NCBI RefSeq assembly: GCF_024502345.1
Contig: NZ_JALDNN010000001.1
Direction: 5' to 3' (one strand)
DNA from: Escherichia coli
Lineage (GTDB): Bacteria; Pseudomonadota; Gammaproteobacteria; Enterobacterales; Enterobacteriaceae
Length of the DNA: 64,000 nt
This document shows positions 4,054 through 60,523 of this stretch, in pieces. Every line of letters begins with the position of its first letter. Within the stretch, counting starts at the first letter, position 1. The notes under the pieces were generated by a model. It saw only the letters and a list, made by a program, of their open reading frames with translations. It searched no databases and was not told the DNA's origin. A program made the translations under genes and the position numbers.

Positions 4054-5110
4054 GGCTTTGTTGAATAAATCGAACTTTTGCTGAGTTGAAGGATCAGATC
4101 ACGTATCTTCCCGACAACGCAGACCGTTCCGTGGCAAAGCAAAAGTTCAAAATCACCAACTGGCCCACCTACAATAAAGCCCTCATCAACCGTGGCTCCA
4201 TAACTTTCTGGCTGGATGATGAAGCTATTCAGGCCTGGTATGAGTCAGCAACACCTTCTTCACGAGGCAGACCTCAGCGCTATTCTGACCTTGCCATCAC
4301 GACTGTGCTGGTCATTAAACGCGTATTCAGGCTGACCCTGCGCGCTGCGCAGGGCTTTATTGATTCCATTTTTTCTCTGATGAACGTTCCGCTACGCTGC
4401 CCGGATTACAGCTGTGTCAGCAGGCGGGCAAAGTCGGTTAATGTCAGTTTCAAAACGCCCACCCGGGGTGAAATCGCACACCTGGTAATTGATTCCACCG
4501 GGCTGAAGGTCTTCGGTGAAGGCGAGTGGAAAGTCAAAAAGCATGGCCAGGAACGCCGCCGTATCTGGCGTAAGCTGCATCTCGCCGTTGACAGTAAAAC
4601 ACATGAAATCATCTGCGCTGACCTGTCGCTGAACAACGTTACGGACTCAGAGGCCTTCCCCGGGTTAATCCGGCAAACCCACCGGAAAATCAGGTCAGCC
4701 GCCGCCGATGGCGCTTACGATACCCGGCTATGTCACGATGAACTGCGGCGTAAGAAAATCAGCGCGCTTATCCCTCCCCGAAAAGGTGCGGGTTACTGGC
4801 CCGGTGAATATGCAGACCGTAACCGTGCAGTGGCTAATCAGCGAATGACCGGGAGTAATGCGCGGTGGAAATGGACAACAGATTACAACCGTCGCTCGAT
4901 AGCGGAAACGGCGATGTACCGGGTAAAACAGCTGTTCGGGGGTTCACTGACACTGCGTGACTACGATGGTCAGGTTGCAGAGGCTATGGCCCTGGTACGA
5001 GCGCTGAACAAAATGACGAAAGCAGGTATGCCTGAAAGCGTGCGTATTGCCTGAAAACACAACCCGCTACGGGGGAGACTTACCCGAAATCTGATTTATT
5101 CAACAAAGCC
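4054..5110 (+). mobile_element. IS903-family (IS5 superfamily) insertion sequence, 1057 bp, copy 1
   Basis: 18-bp terminal inverted repeats GGCTTTGTTGAATAAATC at both ends; 1057-bp length matches IS903; identical second copy at 52638..53694; no 9-bp target-site duplication. Confidence 0.85.
4131..5054 (+). CDS. IS903-family DDE transposase (307 aa from GTG; the ORF track extends to 4086)
   Basis: ORF fills the IS; IS5-family transposase-like sequence (…NWPTYNKALINRGSITFWLDDEAIQAWY…); GTG start inferred from the 307-aa IS903 transposase length. Confidence 0.8.
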   Translation: MAKQKFKITNWPTYNKALINRGSITFWLDDEAIQAWYESATPSSRGRPQRYSDLAITTVLVIKRVFRLTLRAAQGFIDSIFSLMNVPLRCPDYSCVSRRAKSVNVSFKTPTRGEIAHLVIDSTGLKVFGEGEWKVKKHGQERRRIWRKLHLAVDSKTHEIICADLSLNNVTDSEAFPGLIRQTHRKIRSAAADGAYDTRLCHDELRRKKISALIPPRKGAGYWPGEYADRNRAVANQRMTGSNARWKWTTDYNRRSIAETAMYRVKQLFGGSLTLRDYDGQVAEAMALVRALNKMTKAGMPESVRIA

Positions 5111-15306: not shown

Positions 15307-15650
15307 CAAGATCTTCTCATACTCTCCAGGTTTACAACATTATCCTTAATATTTACTTCTTTTTGCTGGCATCTACATTGAAATGAGTAGAAAACATCCC
15401 CCTACTGTCGTCTATACAAACAGCTTACTGATTCAAAGGGAATCTTGTTTTCACATTTTTCTATCATGAATACTTTATACGCGCGGGAGTCTATAAATGC
15501 TTTATACTTTCAAGGAATAACGCAAATATAAAAAGATGGCGTAAAGTATATGCATGGCAGGATGTTTGCAACCTCCTTCATGACGCTGCCCCATTGAAAT
15601 TGCAAACCCCGCCCTGGTTATCTTGCCCATTTATCATGCAAAACAGATAA

Positions 15651-16460
15651 TTATAGGCCTCTGAATACCTCAGAAAGATTGAATTTTTTATAGTCCCTCT
15701 CTTGAATATTTCCATTTGAAATCAATCGATTCATCTCTTCAACAAAATAATTTATATCATCACACTTGTTATTATCCGGAAGATCTGAGTAGTTATAATT
15801 CCACCATTTTATTCTCAACAGTTCATCAATAACATTTGAATCAAACCTAAATCTGATTATTTTTGCAGGAACTCCTGCAACTATGGCATATGGGGGCACA
15901 TCTTTGGTAACAACGGAATTGGCAGCAATAACAGCACCATCACCTATTGTGATGCCACCTTTCAATACAACATCATTTCCTATCCAGACATCATTTCCTA
16001 TAATCGGATTTTCAGGTTTTGTAATGAATGGTTTCAATGTCCAGCTACGTTCAAACTCACTCATAGCAAACTTATCAAATTCACCGTTATAAGTCATCAT
16101 GTGAGTAGTAAAACGATTCAAAGAATGATTTCCACCCATTATTTTTACATTTGATGCAATACTACAAAATCGACCTATACGTATATTCCCTGAAAAATGA
16201 CAGGTCGGAAATGAAAAAGCGCCGACACTGGAGAAATTTTTTACAGGCATTGTTGAATATTCTTCAGCAATAACATTATCTTCAATTGTTATCTTGTCAC
16301 CTTTTGAGAAAAGAAATAAATTCCTTTCTTTATACGACTTCTTCCCCTTATGATTTAAAAAGATTTTATTATCCATACAAAACTCAAAGTGTTTTTTCGT
16401 CCATCTGAAGGTAAGGGGTTTATTTTTATCTTCCGTGAATTTGTACAATTGAACTTTCAT
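15651..16460 (-). CDS. Hexapeptide-repeat (left-handed beta-helix) acetyltransferase, Vat/CatB-like xenobiotic acetyltransferase family, with N- and C-terminal extensions
   Basis: 269-aa ORF; motif …IIGNDVWIGNDVVLKGGITIGDGAVIAANSVVTKDVPPYAIVAGVPAKIIRFRF… typical of streptogramin/chloramphenicol acetyltransferases; gene and flanks are markedly AT-rich relative to neighbours. Confidence 0.75.
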   Translation of the reverse strand: MKVQLYKFTEDKNKPLTFRWTKKHFEFCMDNKIFLNHKGKKSYKERNLFLFSKGDKITIEDNVIAEEYSTMPVKNFSSVGAFSFPTCHFSGNIRIGRFCSIASNVKIMGGNHSLNRFTTHMMTYNGEFDKFAMSEFERSWTLKPFITKPENPIIGNDVWIGNDVVLKGGITIGDGAVIAANSVVTKDVPPYAIVAGVPAKIIRFRFDSNVIDELLRIKWWNYNYSDLPDNNKCDDINYFVEEMNRLISNGNIQERDYKKFNLSEVFRGL

Positions 16461-16669
16461 TGTTAATACTTCTACTTATAAAGTATTAGTTTAATAACGA
16501 TACTCTAAAGCCTTATGCTAATCAACTGTGACAGGATGAAAAATCGCCATCAAACATTTAGCCTAATTTTTACGCTAGTTATTAATGTAATCATTCTAAT
16601 ACTTAACCGCCATTAAACTCAGAACCGAAAACGATAGTGGCCGTCCTATAACAGCCACTAACATCTAAC

Positions 16670-33413: not shown

Positions 33414-35069
33414 TTAACTCATCACGCGGTCGTCAACATACTGACGTTTATCCGGCGCTGGCGGAAAATACTGATACAGCCATGTTTCACTGATAGCGTC
33501 CCCCTGACAACGTAGATACATCCGCATATCGACCGGATCAGTGGAGTCCGAAGTCGGATACCAGTCAAACTGAATACGATAACCATCGATGGGTTCAATA
33601 TAGAGAATTTCGATTTGCTTCGCTTCCCCACTGGAAAGCGTAATCACCGGCTCAATGCCTTTTGGCGCGGCAGCTTTCAGATCACCACCAACGAAATCGA
33701 CGGCAAAACGACGCGCCCATTTTTCGGGATAGTGTTCACCTGGCGCCCAACCTTCCGGGAAACCGCCCATGCCGGTACGCGTCGCCATAACGCGCGCTAA
33801 TGGGCAATGAACAGGCGGTTGCGCACTCCAGTACAGACGATACTGGAATGCAAACTCATCACCTGCTTTTACAGCTTTTTCTGGCTGCCAGAAGCAGACA
33901 ATGTTATCCAGCGTTTCGCCCGTTGTTGGGATTTCCATCAGGCCGATGGTGCCCTTACCCCACTTGTTACGCGGTTCCACCCACAGACTTGGGCGTTTGT
34001 TATACCAGCCCATAATGTCCTGATAATGGGAGAAGTCACGATCCAGTTGCAATAAACCAAACCCTTTCGGGTTGTTGTCGGTGTAAGCATTGAACTGCAA
34101 TTTTTGCGGATTATTCAGCGGACGGCAAATCCACTCGCCGTTGCCCCGCCACATGGACAGACGATCAGAGTCATGAATTTGCGGATGAATTGTATCGCAC
34201 ATCCGACGTTCATTAGTACCGCAGCTGAACATACTGGTCATCGGCGCAATGCCCAGCTGTTTAATGTCTTTGCGCGCATACAGGTGATTTTCCACATCCA
34301 TAATCACCTGACTTTTCTCACAATGGATAGTGAACTTATAGGCACCAGTAATGCTGGCGCTATCGAGCAACGCATAAACGGTAAAGGTAGTTGCCCCCGG
34401 TTTTACCGTATCAAACCAGAAGGCGGTAAAGTCGGGGAACTCTTCTTTACTGTCGGTGTAAGTGTCGATCGCCAGGCCGCGGGCCGACAAACCGTATTGA
34501 TATGTATCATCAACGGCGCGGAAATAACTCGCGCCGAGAAATGATACTACATCACGGCGCGCCAGTTCGGGGGCTTTAAACACGCGAAAACCGGCAAAGC
34601 CGAGATCGCTTTGCCCTTCTAATTGTTTTGTATCAACACCCGCATCGTTGTATTTGAACAACTCCGGGCGAAAGTGAATTTCACGCGCCAGATGTGTTGC
34701 TGGATCTACAGAAAACATACGAACGCGGCGACGGAATCCCATTCCCATATGGAAGAACTGAGCGTCCAGTTGACGGTTCTCAACGTTATGCCAGAGCGAT
34801 TTTTCGGCGTCGTATTGAATACTGTTATAAGCCTGCGGCGTCATTGTCGCCAGCGTGTCAGGTAACGGACGAGGCGCACCACGCCACGCTGTTTGCGCTA
34901 AGTCGTGCGCCATTGACTGTAGAATGGAGAAGTCAAAACGCTGGGTTTGCCCGTCGGCAATATCAGAATCTGCCGCGAATGCCGCCTGAGAAAAAAGAGA
35001 AGCAATGCCGCTGGTACCGCACACGGCGGCCATAGCCATTGAACCTTTAATAAATCGTCTACGATCCAT
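33414..35069 (-). CDS. opgD: Glucans biosynthesis protein D (periplasmic, Tat signal)
   Basis: 551-aa ORF with twin-arginine motif (MDRRRFIKG). Confidence 0.9.
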
Positions 35070-52637: not shown

Positions 52638-53694
52638 GGCTTTGTTGAATAAATCGAACTTTTGCTGAGTTGAAGGATCAGATCACGTATCTTCCCGACA
52701 ACGCAGACCGTTCCGTGGCAAAGCAAAAGTTCAAAATCACCAACTGGCCCACCTACAATAAAGCCCTCATCAACCGTGGCTCCATAACTTTCTGGCTGGA
52801 TGATGAAGCTATTCAGGCCTGGTATGAGTCAGCAACACCTTCTTCACGAGGCAGACCTCAGCGCTATTCTGACCTTGCCATCACGACTGTGCTGGTCATT
52901 AAACGCGTATTCAGGCTGACCCTGCGCGCTGCGCAGGGCTTTATTGATTCCATTTTTTCTCTGATGAACGTTCCGCTACGCTGCCCGGATTACAGCTGTG
53001 TCAGCAGGCGGGCAAAGTCGGTTAATGTCAGTTTCAAAACGCCCACCCGGGGTGAAATCGCACACCTGGTAATTGATTCCACCGGGCTGAAGGTCTTCGG
53101 TGAAGGCGAGTGGAAAGTCAAAAAGCATGGCCAGGAACGCCGCCGTATCTGGCGTAAGCTGCATCTCGCCGTTGACAGTAAAACACATGAAATCATCTGC
53201 GCTGACCTGTCGCTGAACAACGTTACGGACTCAGAGGCCTTCCCCGGGTTAATCCGGCAAACCCACCGGAAAATCAGGTCAGCCGCCGCCGATGGCGCTT
53301 ACGATACCCGGCTATGTCACGATGAACTGCGGCGTAAGAAAATCAGCGCGCTTATCCCTCCCCGAAAAGGTGCGGGTTACTGGCCCGGTGAATATGCAGA
53401 CCGTAACCGTGCAGTGGCTAATCAGCGAATGACCGGGAGTAATGCGCGGTGGAAATGGACAACAGATTACAACCGTCGCTCGATAGCGGAAACGGCGATG
53501 TACCGGGTAAAACAGCTGTTCGGGGGTTCACTGACACTGCGTGACTACGATGGTCAGGTTGCAGAGGCTATGGCCCTGGTACGAGCGCTGAACAAAATGA
53601 CGAAAGCAGGTATGCCTGAAAGCGTGCGTATTGCCTGAAAACACAACCCGCTACGGGGGAGACTTACCCGAAATCTGATTTATTCAACAAAGCC
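52638..53694 (+). mobile_element. IS903-family insertion sequence, 1057 bp, copy 2 (identical to copy 1, same orientation)
   Basis: Same 18-bp terminal inverted repeats; the encoded ORFs are identical to copy 1; no target-site duplication. Confidence 0.85.
52715..53638 (+). CDS. IS903-family DDE transposase
   Basis: Identical to the transposase ORF at 4131..5054. Confidence 0.8.
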   Translation: MAKQKFKITNWPTYNKALINRGSITFWLDDEAIQAWYESATPSSRGRPQRYSDLAITTVLVIKRVFRLTLRAAQGFIDSIFSLMNVPLRCPDYSCVSRRAKSVNVSFKTPTRGEIAHLVIDSTGLKVFGEGEWKVKKHGQERRRIWRKLHLAVDSKTHEIICADLSLNNVTDSEAFPGLIRQTHRKIRSAAADGAYDTRLCHDELRRKKISALIPPRKGAGYWPGEYADRNRAVANQRMTGSNARWKWTTDYNRRSIAETAMYRVKQLFGGSLTLRDYDGQVAEAMALVRALNKMTKAGMPESVRIA

Positions 53695-54038: not shown

Positions 54039-54287
54039 TTATCATTCCGTGATATTCAGTTTGCTCTATGGTGCATCAATTGTGATGGCGGAGATATCAC
54101 AACGCGGAGCATCAACGTAAATTCGGAATATATCAAGATGTGGTGGATGGTTTTCCTACACATCTGTTTGATTACCGACTGGATGTCAGTGAGATACCAT
54201 CGATCACTGTACGAATCAATGAATCCATTGCCTTTTCCCTGATTATCCAGCCGCAAATCCTGGCCTTAAACATATGCACTCCATGCC

Positions 54288-55383: not shown

Positions 55384-55425
55384 AGGTATCACATGCTAAA
55401 AATTAGAATGTTCAGTATCTGGACG

Positions 55426-56016
55426 TTACTGTTTCGGTCGCAGATTCTCATCAAATACCAGACGTTTCCTGTTCGGTTCAACTTCCCGCAATGGCTCAAC
55501 TTGATGCAACGTCTGCTTACAACGAGTCACCAGCACCTGATACTCATGCGTACCCTGCTTTTTCCATGCCAGCTCCTGCTCACTGAGTTCACGAATCGCT
55601 TTCGCCGGGCTGCCGACAATCAGGTAATTGGCAGGCATTTCTGCTTTGGCTTTCACAAATGCGGATGCGCCAACAATGCTGTTCTCGCCAATCACCGCGC
55701 CGTCCATCACTACCGCGTTCATTCCCACTAATGCATTGCGGCGGATAATGCAACCATGAAGGATAGCGCTATGACCAATATGCCCATCTTCTTCCACGAC
55801 AGTATCCTGTTCGGGAAAACCGTGCATAACGCAATTATCCTGAATGTTCGCGCCATCTTTCACTACGATACGACCAAAATCGCCACGCAGATTGGCATTT
55901 GGCCCAACGTAAACGCCCTTGCCGAGAATAACATCGCCGATCAATACCGCTGTCGGATGGACAAAACTCTCTTCTGGCACAACCGGAGTCAGACCATCTA
56001 TCTGGTAAATTGGCAT
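55426..56016 (-). CDS. paaY: Hexapeptide-repeat thioesterase PaaY
   Basis: 196-aa left-handed beta-helix ORF; position downstream of the paaX remnant. Confidence 0.85.
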
Positions 56017-56555
56017 AACGCCTCCTGTTCAATATTCAAACCGCCAAAACGTTGAAAATACAGGCTTCCCGGCGCAGGCAGTTCACCGACCGAGGTTTCA
56101 CCTTTTTCACTAACGAACGCTAAAGCAGCAGGCGCTACGCGCTGATAAATGTTGATACACAGCTGACGCGCCGTATGCCCTGCCCAGTGCGCCGGAAGCA
56201 ACTCCTCTGGCAACAATGGGTCTTTAAGGACGACACGGCGATAAAAATGGATCAGTAAAAGCTGAATATGAAATGCACGCTCCGGGGTTAACTCGTCTGC
56301 TGCCTCTTTTAACAGCGGCACCAGCGGGCGGAATGACTGAATAAAGGTTTCGTACATGGCATTTTGTTCAGTTAAATGCCAGCACTCTTCCACTCTGGCA
56401 CGCAGTGCTGCACGAGAAAGCGCCAGTGGTATTTGCGCTTCAAAACAAATCACGTTATCCGCCAGAAGGGCATTATTTAGCGCATTACGTGCGGCGGGAC
56501 GGTTAAGGGTCAGCAACAATACTTGTTGCTGACGGCTGACGATCAGTTCGCTCAT
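55998..56555 (-). pseudogene. In-frame fusion remnant: first ~31 codons of enoyl-CoA hydratase PaaF joined to the C-terminal ~154 codons of repressor PaaX
   Basis: N-terminus MSELIVSRQQQVLLLTLNRPAARNALNNALL is a crotonase-type start, but the remainder lacks crotonase features and sits where the paaX 3' end should be; junction near 56462. Confidence 0.6.
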
Positions 56556-57193
56556 GCCATCCCCTTCGCGTCAAAGTCAACCACCACATCGCTGGTCAGC
56601 GGCAGTGCCTGGCAACTCAACACATAGCCTGCGGCCAGTTCATCCGGTTCCAGACTGTAATTGGTTTCCATCGCCACTTTGCCACGCAGCACTTTGCATT
56701 TGCAGGTCGCACAGACGCCGCCTTTGCAGGCATAGGGCAGATCAGCCCCCTGGCGCAATGCCGCATCGAGAATGCTTTCATCGTCGGCATTAAGCACGAT
56801 TTCCCGATCCCGCCCATCCTGACGTACAGTCACTTTTTGTCCGTCACTTTGCACGTTAACGCTACGTTTGACGCGCGTGCCAGGCGTATTAAACCGCTCC
56901 AGATGAATGGTTTTATCTGGCATTCCCAGTGCTTTTAAGGCGGCTTCCGTCTCATCCATCATCGCCGCCGGACCACAAATAAATGCCTCATCATAAAGAC
57001 GAAAATTAATGAGCGAGGCCCCAAGTGACTGTAATTTTTCACCGTCAATACGCCCGTGAAGCAGATCGCTGTCGAGGGTTTCCTGACTGAAAATGCACAA
57101 CAACTGTAAACGCTGAGGATATTTGTCTTTCAGGTCTGCCAGTGCCTGGCGAAACATCATGCTCTGGCTGGTACGGTTACCGTAGATCAGGGT
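56552..57193 (-). pseudogene. paaE: 3' fragment of paaE (ferredoxin-NADPH reductase subunit; 2Fe-2S C-terminal domain retained, N-terminal FAD domain deleted)
   Basis: CKGGVCATCKCKVL 2Fe-2S motif; the frame extends upstream of the listed Met to about 57193, where homology ends. Confidence 0.65.
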
Positions 57194-57956
57194 GATGCCC
57201 GCACAAAACCAGCGACATGCTCTGCAACTGGCTTGTGCAGGCGGCGGTAGCCTTGCGGGAACGCTGGTGACGGCTGATCCGCAAATTGCGCGTCAGTTTA
57301 TTGCCGACGCGGCACGTACGCATGGGCGAATTCAGATCCTCAATGAAGAATCGGCAAAAGAATCCACCGGGCATGGCTCCCCACTGCCACAACTGTTACA
57401 TGGTGGGCCTGGTCGCGCAGGAGGCGGTGAAGAATTAGGTGGTTTACGAGCGGTGAAACATTACATGCAGCGAACCGCTGTTCAGGGTAGTCCGACGATG
57501 CTTGCCGCTATCAGTAAACAGTGGGTGCGCGGTGCGAAAGTCGAAGAAGATCGTATTCATCCGTTCCGCAAATATTTTGAGGAGCTGCAACCAGGCGACA
57601 GCCTGTTGACTCCCCGCCGCACAATGACAGAGGCCGATATTGTTAACTTTGCTTGCCTCAGCGGCGATCATTTCTATGCACATATGGATAAAATTGCTGC
57701 TGCCGAATCTATTTTTGGTGAGCGTGTGGTACATGGATATTTTGTGCTTTCTGCGGCTGCGGGTCTGTTTGTCGATGCCGGTGTCGGTCCGGTCATAGCT
57801 AACTACGGGCTGGAAAACTTGCGTTTTATCGAACCCGTAAAACCAGGCGATACCATCCAGGTGCGTCTCACCTGTAAGCGCAAGACGCTGAAAAAACAGC
57901 GTAGCGCAGAAGAAAAACCAACAGGTGTGGTGGAATGGGCGGTATGGGCACGCTAA
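57194..57956 (+). pseudogene. paaZ: 3' fragment of paaZ (end of ALDH domain plus MaoC hot-dog hydratase domain); last ~20 codons replaced at the tynA junction
   Basis: MaoC-like region …[19 protein letters not shown]…VVHGYFVL…; divergent from the paaE fragment with no intervening paaA-D. Confidence 0.65.
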
Positions 57957-58963
57957 CCTCACCAATTGCTCGTGGTAAAGATGCCCCGTCTAACGCAGTG
58001 CTCCTTAATGAAACCATCGCCGACTACACTGGCGTGCCGATGGAGATCCCTCGCGCTATCGCGGTATTTGAACGTTATGCCGGGCCGGAGTATAAGCATC
58101 AGGAAATGGGCCAGCCCAACGTCAGTACCGAACGCCGGGAGTTAGTGGTGCGCTGGATCAGTACAGTGGGTAACTATGACTACATTTTTGACTGGATCTT
58201 CCATGAAAACGGCACTATTGGCATTGATGCCGGTGCTACGGGCATCGAAGCGGTGAAAGGTGTTAAAGCGAAAACCATGCACGATGAGACGGCGAAAGAT
58301 GACACGCGCTACGGCACGCTTATCGATCACAATATCGTGGGTACTACACACCAACATATTTATAATTTCCGCCTCGATCTGGATGTAGATGGCGAGAATA
58401 ACAGCCTGGTGGCGATGGACCCAGTGGTAAAACCGAATACTGCCGGTGGCCCACGCACCAGTACCATGCAAGTTAATCAGTACAACATCGGCAATGAACA
58501 GGATGCCGCGCAGAAGTTTGATCCGGGCACGATTCGTCTGTTGAGTAACCCGAACAAAGAGAACCGCATGGGCAATCCAGTTTCCTATCAAATTATTCCT
58601 TATGCAGGTGGTACTCACCCGGTAGCAAAAGGTGCCCAGTTCGCGCCGGACGTGTGGATCTATCATCGTTTAAGCTTTATGGACAAGCAGCTTTGGGTAA
58701 CGCGTTATCATCCTGGCGAGCGTTTCCCGGAAGGCAAATATCCGAACCGTTCTACTCATGACACCGGTCTTGGACAATACAGTAAAGATAACGAGTCGCT
58801 GGACAACACCGACGCCGTTGTCTGGATGACCACCGGCACCACACATGTGGCCCGCGCCGAAGAGTGGCCGATTATGCCGACCGAATGGGTACATACTCTG
58901 CTTAAACCATGGAACTTCTTTGACGAAACGCCAACGCTAGGGGCGCTGAAGAAAGATAAGTGA
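57941..58963 (+). pseudogene. tynA: 3' fragment of copper amine oxidase tynA (C-terminal catalytic domain, about 340 codons)
   Basis: TPQ-site motif VGNYDY and conserved His ligands; N-terminal domains and signal peptide absent. Confidence 0.7.
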
Positions 58964-58973
58964 TTGTTTCAGA

Positions 58974-59002
58974 CAAAAAAACGGCACCAGGTGCCGTTTT
59001 TT
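58974..59002. terminator. Bidirectional terminator between tynA and feaB
   Basis: A7-ACGGCAC-CAG-GTGCCGT-T6. Confidence 0.6.
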
Positions 59003-59020
59003 ACTTATGAGCGAACCAGA

Positions 59021-60523
59021 TTAATACCGTACACACACCGACTTAGTTTCACACCAACCGTCCAGCCAGTCGGGGCCAAAATCACGGCCCGTTCCTGACT
59101 GCTTCATCCCACCAAACGGTAAGTTAGCGTCAATTAAGGTATGGCTGTTTACCCACACCGTCCCTGCCTGTAAGCGATCGCTATATTCCAGAGCCTGGGA
59201 GAGATTTTGCGTCCAGACACTGGCAGTTAAGCCATATTCCGTGTCGTTTGCCAGTTGTAACGCCTCTTCTCCATCCGCTACTCGCACCAGGTTTACCACC
59301 GGACCAAACACCTCTTCACGAGTTAAGCGCAATTTAGCATCGGGATTTACCACCAGCGTTGGCGCAACATAATACCCCTCTCCGGCTGGTCCATTCGACC
59401 CGCGAATCAGCTCTGCTTGCTGTGCCTGCGCATCGTCGAGGAATGAACACACTTTGTCGCAGTGCGCACGAGAAACCAAAGGGTTAATCTGTGCAACAGG
59501 TGACATCCCCGGTCCCACTTGCAACGATTTTACCGCCTGCTCAAATCCACTAACCAGCGTGTCAAACAACGGCGCTTCAATATAAATTCGCGAACTGGCG
59601 GCGCATACTTGCCCTTGATTCAGGAAGCTTCCGGTCATCAAGCCTTCAATAACCCATTGCGGATCAGCATCTTTTAATACAATTGCCGGGTTTTTACCGC
59701 CCAGTTCCAGCGTTACACGCGTTAAGTGATCAGCAGCAGTTCTGGCAATACCTTTTCCCGTCGCGGTTGAACCGGTAAAACTGATTTTCGCAACATGAGG
59801 ATGTGACGTCAGGGCCGCGCCGCATACAGCACCTGACCCGGTGACCACATTAAAAACGCCATCAGGGATACCAGCCTCGCTGGCCAGTTCCGCCACGCGC
59901 AACATCGTCAGTGGCGTGGTTTCCGAAGGCTTAATCACGATTGAACAGCCTGCTGCCAGTGCTGGCATCACCTTCCACATACCAATCATCAACGGAAAGT
60001 TCCATGGCACAATTCCCGCCACTACGCCAACCGGCTCTTTACGCGTCCAGGCCTGATAACGCGCCCCCTGGGGTAAGGGAATCGACAAGTCCAGCGTTTT
60101 ACCCGCGATTTTGGTCGTTAACCCGGCGGTATAACGCATCCAGTTCAGCGTACAGCCCACTTCAAAAGCACGGGAAATGGCAATTGACTTGCCTTGCTCC
60201 AGGGTTTCCAGTTGCGCCAGCTCCTCACTGTGCTGTTCCACCAGATCGGCAAAACGTAGCAGAATACGTTCACGCTCTGCGGGTAATCGCCCGGCCCAGC
60301 GACGCGAGACAAAGGCCCGCCAGGCAGACATGACTGCGTTATCTACATCCGCTTCGTTGGCATCAGCAGTAGACGCAATTTCTTGCCCGGTGGCCGGATC
60401 AAAGATCGCCAATCGTTTTTCACTTTGTGCGGGGCCTGGACGACCATCAATATAAAGACCGTGTTGACGATCGAGAAACTGTTGGACCTGGCTTAATACT
60501 GCTACATGCGGCTCTGTCATCAC
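59021..60523 (-). CDS. feaB: Phenylacetaldehyde dehydrogenase
   Basis: 500-aa ALDH ORF. Confidence 0.9.

Follow-up and report, generated by a model that had tools for sequence, protein, structure and literature searches.

A paaF'-'paaX hybrid reading frame, probably left by a spontaneous deletion in the paa locus of wild Escherichia coli

The paa genes of E. coli form three transcription units that are driven by the promoters Pz, Pa and Px, with paaXY under the control of Px (PMC9493321; PMC13186573). Goldstone et al. 2016 found the fea-tynA-paa locus of E. coli to be genomically heterogeneous, and reported independent tynA-paaZABCDE deletions in mastitis lineages as well as a deletion-made paaA-paaK fusion gene in DEC6A/DEC6B (PMC4951805). 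The feature described here is an ordinary natural deletion remnant, i.e. a new allele in a locus with a published record of such decay.

The reading frame in question occupies positions 55998-56555 on the minus strand of the window (by which we mean the whole stretch of 64,000 nucleotides that was analysed) and encodes 185 amino acids from an ATG start. According to the ORF listing, BLASTP, Pfam and NCBIfam it has the composition PaaF(1-31)::PaaX(163-316) and spans a deletion, D1. The paaF part (56463-56555, minus strand, codons 1-31) includes the native start codon, which overlaps the paaE stop codon (ATGA), and the paaX part (55998-56462, minus strand, codons 163-316 and the stop) encodes the tail of PaaX_M and the whole of PaaX_C. 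In BLASTP, residues 26-185 correspond to residues 157-316 of K-12 PaaX (155/160 identical, E=7e-117), and residues 1-31, with a chance extension to residue 40, match K-12 PaaF (E=8e-16). A first-pass annotation, made from the sequence alone, had proposed a paaF'-'paaX chimera that switches at about codon 31, and the BLASTP, Pfam and NCBIfam results bear it out. Since there are matches to both PaaF and PaaX, and no end-to-end alignment with any single protein, which the annotation had named as the possible refutation, the ORF is a true chimera.

The domain content is in agreement with this composition. K-12 PaaX consists of a wHTH domain (PF07848, residues 19-87), a Cas2-like central domain (PF20803, 104-172) and PaaX_C (PF08223, 190-280). 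Pfam detects PaaX_C in complete form at residues 59-149 of the fusion (profile positions 1-90/91, E=2.5e-29). The winged-helix DNA-binding domain PF07848 was not found by Pfam in the fusion, as had been anticipated for a PaaX part without its DNA-binding N-terminus, and there is likewise no Pfam match to the PF20803 dimerisation domain in the fusion, which begins at PaaX residue 163. PaaX_C is the sole surviving PaaX domain because D1 removes paaX codons 1-162. The PaaF portion gives a weak N-terminal match to ECH_1 (residues 8-39, profile positions 2-33/251, E=0.045); PaaF contributes residues 1-31 only, and the complete ECH_1 domain (~250 residues with the catalytic Glu residues) is not there. 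In NCBIfam the PaaX model TIGR02277 covers residues 24-170 with 187.6 bits, below its cut-off of 264.55, and the PaaF model NF007239 covers residues 2-38, also with a score below its cut-off.

The junction, J1, was located by BLASTN against the K-12 reference locus L001 (NC_000913 1,444,000-1,480,000). Window positions 55425-56464 correspond to L001 21063-20024 (paaY and the 3' part of paaX) and positions 56463-57195 to L001 13590-12858 (nt 1-93 of paaF together with the 3' 644 nt of paaE), so that J1 lies at 56463/56464, where two bases (TG in gene orientation) are shared as microhomology. At the base level, paaF ...GCCCT(G/T)CTG passes into paaX GCGGATAACG..., and the parental sequences have only TG in common. 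Inspection of the junction at this level revealed no filler, repeat, IS, FRT, lox or other mobile-element sequence. The reading frame is kept across the join (31 PaaF codons followed by 154 PaaX codons), and the native overlaps are retained on both sides, i.e. the paaE-stop/paaF-start ATGA and the 19-bp paaX/paaY overlap. The alignment with K-12 paaF and paaX, which the first-pass annotation had suggested as a check, thus placed the join next to the predicted position near 56462, and the base-level view agrees with its description of an in-frame junction free of FRT, loxP or IS scars. The extent of the loss has to be corrected, however. Instead of paaG-paaK, D1 comprises 6,435 bp (L001 13591-20025, MG1655 1,457,590-1,464,024) and has taken away paaF codons 32-255 (88% of paaF), paaGHIJK, the paaK-paaX intergenic region with Px, and paaX codons 1-162. 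The wHTH of PaaX has gone with it, as has almost the whole Cas2-like dimerisation domain in the centre of the protein.

D1 has two close neighbours, so that deletions of 6.4, 4.4 and 1.6 kb lie side by side in the tynA-paaZ-paaA..K-paaX module. The idea of a scarless deletion stands, while that of paaG-paaK as the whole loss does not, the adjoining deletions D2 and D3 with their junctions J2 and J3 having been overlooked. D2 (L001 8437-12857, 4,421 bp) ends in J2 at 57193-57195, where there is a 3-bp microhomology TCA. Lost in D2 are paaZ codons 1 to ~402, the divergent Pz/Pa promoter region, paaABCD and paaE codons 1 to ~142, and the interiors of paaZ and paaE are fused head-to-head. D3 (L001 6101-7688, 1,588 bp) has its junction J3 at 57940-57944, with one shared G within an imperfect TACNG match; it has removed tynA codons 1 to ~417, the tynA-paaZ intergenic spacer and the last ~30 codons of paaZ, and connects the interior of tynA to a point near the 3' end of paaZ. 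An IS element is absent from J1, J2 and J3 alike.

What is retained between tynA' and 'paaX amounts to ~1.5 kb (748 bp of paaZ and 733 bp of paaE/paaF). The paaE 3' fragment (56552-57195, minus strand, from ~codon 143 to the stop) contains a callable ORF of 201-202 aa that starts at an internal Met and carries the 2Fe-2S ferredoxin domain only; the 202-aa ORF that precedes the fusion is therefore a C-terminal fragment of PaaE and no intact gene. An internal fragment of paaZ (57196-57939, plus strand, ~codons 403-652) covers PaaZ profile positions 397-643 and accounts for the 254-aa ORF at 57192-57956. The tynA 3' fragment (57945-58963, plus strand, ~codons 418-757) gives a 342-aa ORF at 57935-58963 that represents the C-terminal half of TynA. 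This fragment has a private change, PDVWIYH as compared to PDEWIYH in its relatives.

Downstream of the fusion, paaY (55426-56016, minus strand) was read as intact from the start, and so it is, with 196 aa and one private substitution, S42N. The private changes in the TynA fragment and PaaY, which are too few for statistics, could reflect relaxed constraint. There is no decay by point mutation in paaY or in the 'paaX part, which differs from its relatives mainly synonymously; this undecayed state speaks to some degree against a pseudogene, but it is equally as a recent deletion predicts. The Pz, Pa and Px regions all fall within D1 or D2, so the paaE'-fusion-paaY string is left without a known promoter, and a consensus scan of the minus strand from 56555 to 59200, i.e. 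from the fusion to feaB, found no sigma-70-like promoter. Unless transcription from feaB reads through the antisense tynA' and paaZ' scraps, the fusion would be transcriptionally silent. Any protein made from it would be a PaaX C-terminal domain that has neither the wHTH nor the dimerisation domain and so would be unable to repress. As there is no promoter, no DNA-binding or dimerisation domain and no operon left to regulate, the fusion most likely has no function and is a silent chimeric pseudogene. A strain that carries this locus is expected not to grow on phenylacetate or 2-phenylethylamine.

Each of the three junctions was found in 0/5,426 complete E. coli genomes. Nevertheless, the exact 185-aa protein is encoded in the NCBI assembly GCA_050022275.1, in four ENA metagenome assemblies and in one Logan SRA run, and the contigs with the fusion protein are 100% identical to the window across every shared base. 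The allele is thus rare, natural and wild. The ydbH-feaRB-tynA-paa-pdxI-ynb region is reversed in the window with respect to K-12, and the remainder matches K-12 collinearly (98-99% identity); the haplotype is not that of a K-12 laboratory strain. The region is a mosaic in which paaZ'/tynA' are like O121, paaE'F' like A7 and 'paaX like E2865. A single wild-type progenitor haplotype was sought among O121 RM8352, A7 and E2865 and rejected, each of them matching some segments only; no progenitor is among these.

We consider it very probable that the ORF is a chimeric pseudogene left by a spontaneous and presumably RecA-independent illegitimate deletion, which in a wild E. coli lineage brought paaF codon 31 next to paaX codon 163. 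Illegitimate deletions leave junctions with 0-10 bp of microhomology and with neither a mobile element nor a long repeat, and the three junctions have this appearance (TG at J1, TCA at J2 and G at J3). Hairpins and inverted repeats were searched for at all six parental breakpoints, and none was present at the paaZ or paaX sites. Judged from the junction anatomy and from established knowledge, a double-strand break would have been repaired by microhomology-mediated end joining, or else the join would stem from template switching during replication. D1, D2 and D3 together dismantle the tynA-paaZ-paaA..K-paaX module, and the kept reading frame would most simply be a 1-in-3 accident.

An artefact of assembly, in which reads of paaF and paaX were joined to a chimera, is conceivable a priori and has nothing else in its favour; the same junction is seen in seven independently assembled contigs that come from different assemblers and samples, and we discount this explanation almost entirely. 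Scarless engineering of D1 (by lambda-Red/CRISPR or in a genome-reduction project) deserves hardly more credit. It would be in line with a junction that has a scar of no kind and with the grouping of several deletions in one dispensable locus, and the mention of FRT and loxP in the first-pass annotation had hinted in this direction. Yet the same allele is present in the independent NCBI draft assembly and in five metagenome or SRA contigs, the breakpoints are arbitrary, intragenic and marked by 1-3 bp of microhomology, the haplotype differs from K-12 by 1-3% and is a mosaic in comparison with natural strains, the sister alleles L014 and L005 hold only a subset of the deletions, and natural IS903-like elements with apparently nested adjacent deletions lie nearby. 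Neither a recombinase scar nor a designed breakpoint was found, and the allele is not confined to a constructed strain. A further question is whether the three deletions arose in one complex, replication-based event (serial template switching of the FoSTeS/MMBIR type) rather than sequentially. The three jumps share one direction, the microhomologies measure 1-3 bp, the retained segments are short (748 and 733 bp), and D2 and D3 always occur together in the recovered contigs. On the other hand, L014 has D2 and D3 with intact paaF-paaJ, so it is without D1, while in L005 and L007 D1 is present and paaE runs on past J2, so they are without D2. From these subset contigs it follows, with the proviso that metagenome contigs may be chimeric, that either D1 at least arose separately or wild-type DNA has restored parts of the locus by homologous recombination. 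A single event is an unlikely alternative to sequential deletion.

It can also be imagined that the in-frame fusion was kept by selection, the strong paaF start driving 'paaX and, by translational coupling over the 19-bp overlap, paaY; either the PaaY thioesterase would stay expressed, or the PA-CoA-binding C-domain of PaaX would gain a new role. The PaaX C-domain is indeed in frame with an upstream ATG next to an intact paaY, both here and in the independent allele of strain 165, and the native paaE/paaF and paaX/paaY overlaps are unbroken. However, two in-frame outcomes are expected by chance at ~1/9, which is not compelling, the promoter regions are deleted with none left, the known substrate of PaaY is a by-product of the deleted pathway (PMC9493321), and an allele found in 0/5,426 complete genomes is rare. 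Selection for the fusion thus appears very improbable.

Other natural inactivating lesions are abundant at this locus. Among the complete genomes there are four other independent IS-free deletions of paaZ'/paaA..paaD(E'), in A7, in 97.3 and its relatives, in HS-01 and in 26561. A fifth deletion, the 12.3-kb paaZ'-'paaX deletion of the strain 165 type, occurs in 19/5,426 complete genomes. In the assembly databases, L022 represents a tynA'-paaC' deletion and L025 a 7-bp frameshift in tynA. Moreover, the identical 201-aa PaaE' ORF (56552-57160 in the window) has been called in no fewer than 111 database blocks and in many lesion contexts (L028-L037); among these are frameshifts, an IS3-family insertion, a rearrangement that resembles an inversion, and deletions that run into paaE from feaR, tynA or paaZ. 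On the evidence of these reading frames, the epoxidase part of the pathway is often and independently inactivated. The clusters of truncated TynA and PaaE' proteins, with many lesions close to the breakpoints of the window, were considered as hot spots and rejected, the clustering being made by the grouping of ORFs that are similar in length or identical; owing to this bias of ORF calling and retrieval they count only toward frequent independent inactivation. The 155-aa PaaX C-terminal ORFs P0004 and P0010 were likewise dismissed as same-site junctions: they are 1-bp frameshifts at differing upstream positions after which the gene caller restarts at the V162 GTG, and they provide no hot-spot evidence.

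The neighbourhood of the locus contains further rearrangements. Two 1,057-bp IS903-like copies (IS5 family; terminal repeats GGCTTTGTTGAATAAATC) are located at 52638-53694 and 4054-5110, both of them without target-site duplications. The former is flanked by ynbC' and ynbA', with ynbB and parts of ynbA and ynbC gone. The latter is flanked by a truncated yddE-like ORF and yncG, with the intervening K-12 genes gone (the gene names at this left copy were read from ORF translations). Both look like IS-associated deletions. The border between the IS903-like element and ynbA, compared at window 53694, L003 11199, L004 4437 and L005 4191, differs among contigs that are otherwise 100% identical: in L001 coordinates it is at 33967 in the window, at 34157 in L004 and L005, and at 34304 in L003. 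This pattern suggests nested IS-adjacent deletions that may still be eating into ynbA. ydbD is gone as well, and in its place there are 106 bp (54138-54243) with no detectable similarity to K-12, O121, A7 or E2865 at the locus. ydbA is absent too, as in many strains, and the neighbouring 5' region of ynbA is unusually diverged (92-95% identity). Finally, between patD and yncL the window has a 1,313-bp insert relative to K-12 (15356-16668), with an 11-bp bounding sequence that aligns on both sides. It encodes a 269-aa hexapeptide-repeat acetyltransferase, a relative of the Vat/CatB xenobiotic acetyltransferases that stays below all NCBIfam cut-offs.

The strain-165 deletion is of particular interest in terms of its end points. 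It retains L001 up to 7686 and from 20033 onwards, and the window retains L001 from 7689 on the paaZ side of J3 and from 20026 on the paaX side of J1. In other words, its breakpoints lie 5-7 bp from J1 (paaX) and 2-3 bp from J3 (paaZ side), as compared between window positions 56457-56464 and 57940-57944 and positions 5159-5160 of L002 (NZ_CP020509.1). If breakpoints are taken as uniformly distributed, the joint chance of this near-coincidence is estimated at ~1e-4. Deletion alone cannot turn either allele into the other, since each retains sequence that is missing from its counterpart. The 100% identity of 'paaX to that of strain 165 was considered as proof of shared descent; the 444-bp haplotype is shared by ~20% of paa+ E. 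coli, so the identity is uninformative. The breakpoints do not resemble IS903 pseudo-ends either, the alignment scores at the two recurrent sites being at the 71st and the 36th percentile of the region. As for a common site-specific motif, comparison by eye gave no more than a weak inverted similarity, CCRCCACACC, whose register with respect to the cuts differs between the sites, and the idea was dropped as unconvincing.

That K-12 1,464,024/25 (paaX) and 1,451,687/88 (paaZ side) are recurrent breakage points is a possibility that we regard as doubtful. Were it so, the sites might be fragile ones fixed by sequence or structure, or they might result from abortive recombination between a wild-type chromosome and another deletion allele, with breaks at the borders of heterology. 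In the latter case existing deletion alleles would seed new deletions in the population. The near-coincidence is the only feature of the locus with wider potential, and if real it would be a sign of fragile sites or of deletion induced by recombination at borders of heterology. By itself the fusion matters little, being a further decayed form of a catabolic island that E. coli can dispense with. Nevertheless, it is a clean case, resolved to the base, of IS-free microhomology deletions that give rise to in-frame hybrid ORFs, which annotation pipelines label 'PaaX C-terminal domain protein', and it shows that the deletions of this locus occur in several combinations (D1, D2+D3 and all three).

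A close counterpart of the fusion is the strain-165 allele, which in NZ_CP020509.1 and 18 other complete genomes is annotated as a 'PaaX family transcriptional regulator C-terminal domain-containing protein' pseudogene. Like the window, it has a PaaX C-terminal fragment followed by an intact paaY, and its junction is scarless with a 2-bp microhomology, TA. Unlike the window, it goes back to one deletion of 12.3 kb (L001 7687-20032), has kept tynA whole, and contains no paaE, paaF or internal paaZ scraps. Its 'paaX is fused to antisense paaZ and not to paaF (it is in frame from an ATG in the antisense paaZ sequence and reads MNTS-NVICFE), and the flanking haplotypes differ by 1-3%. In comparison with wild-type PaaX (PDB 8A39; TIGR02277), the fusion is 97-99% identical to K-12 over residues 163-316 and has the whole of PF08223, but it is devoid of the wHTH PF07848 and of ~85% of PF20803, and its NCBIfam score is below the cut-off; judging by this domain content it cannot bind the operator in the way described for PaaX. 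The deletions of PMC4951805 resemble those of the window in that they affect the same locus, are intragenic and IS-free and create hybrid ORFs, and paaZABCDE is again preferentially lost. They differ from them in their breakpoints; in the window paaF has been fused to paaX, the losses extend to the regulator and the lower-pathway genes, and a single haplotype unites three deletions.
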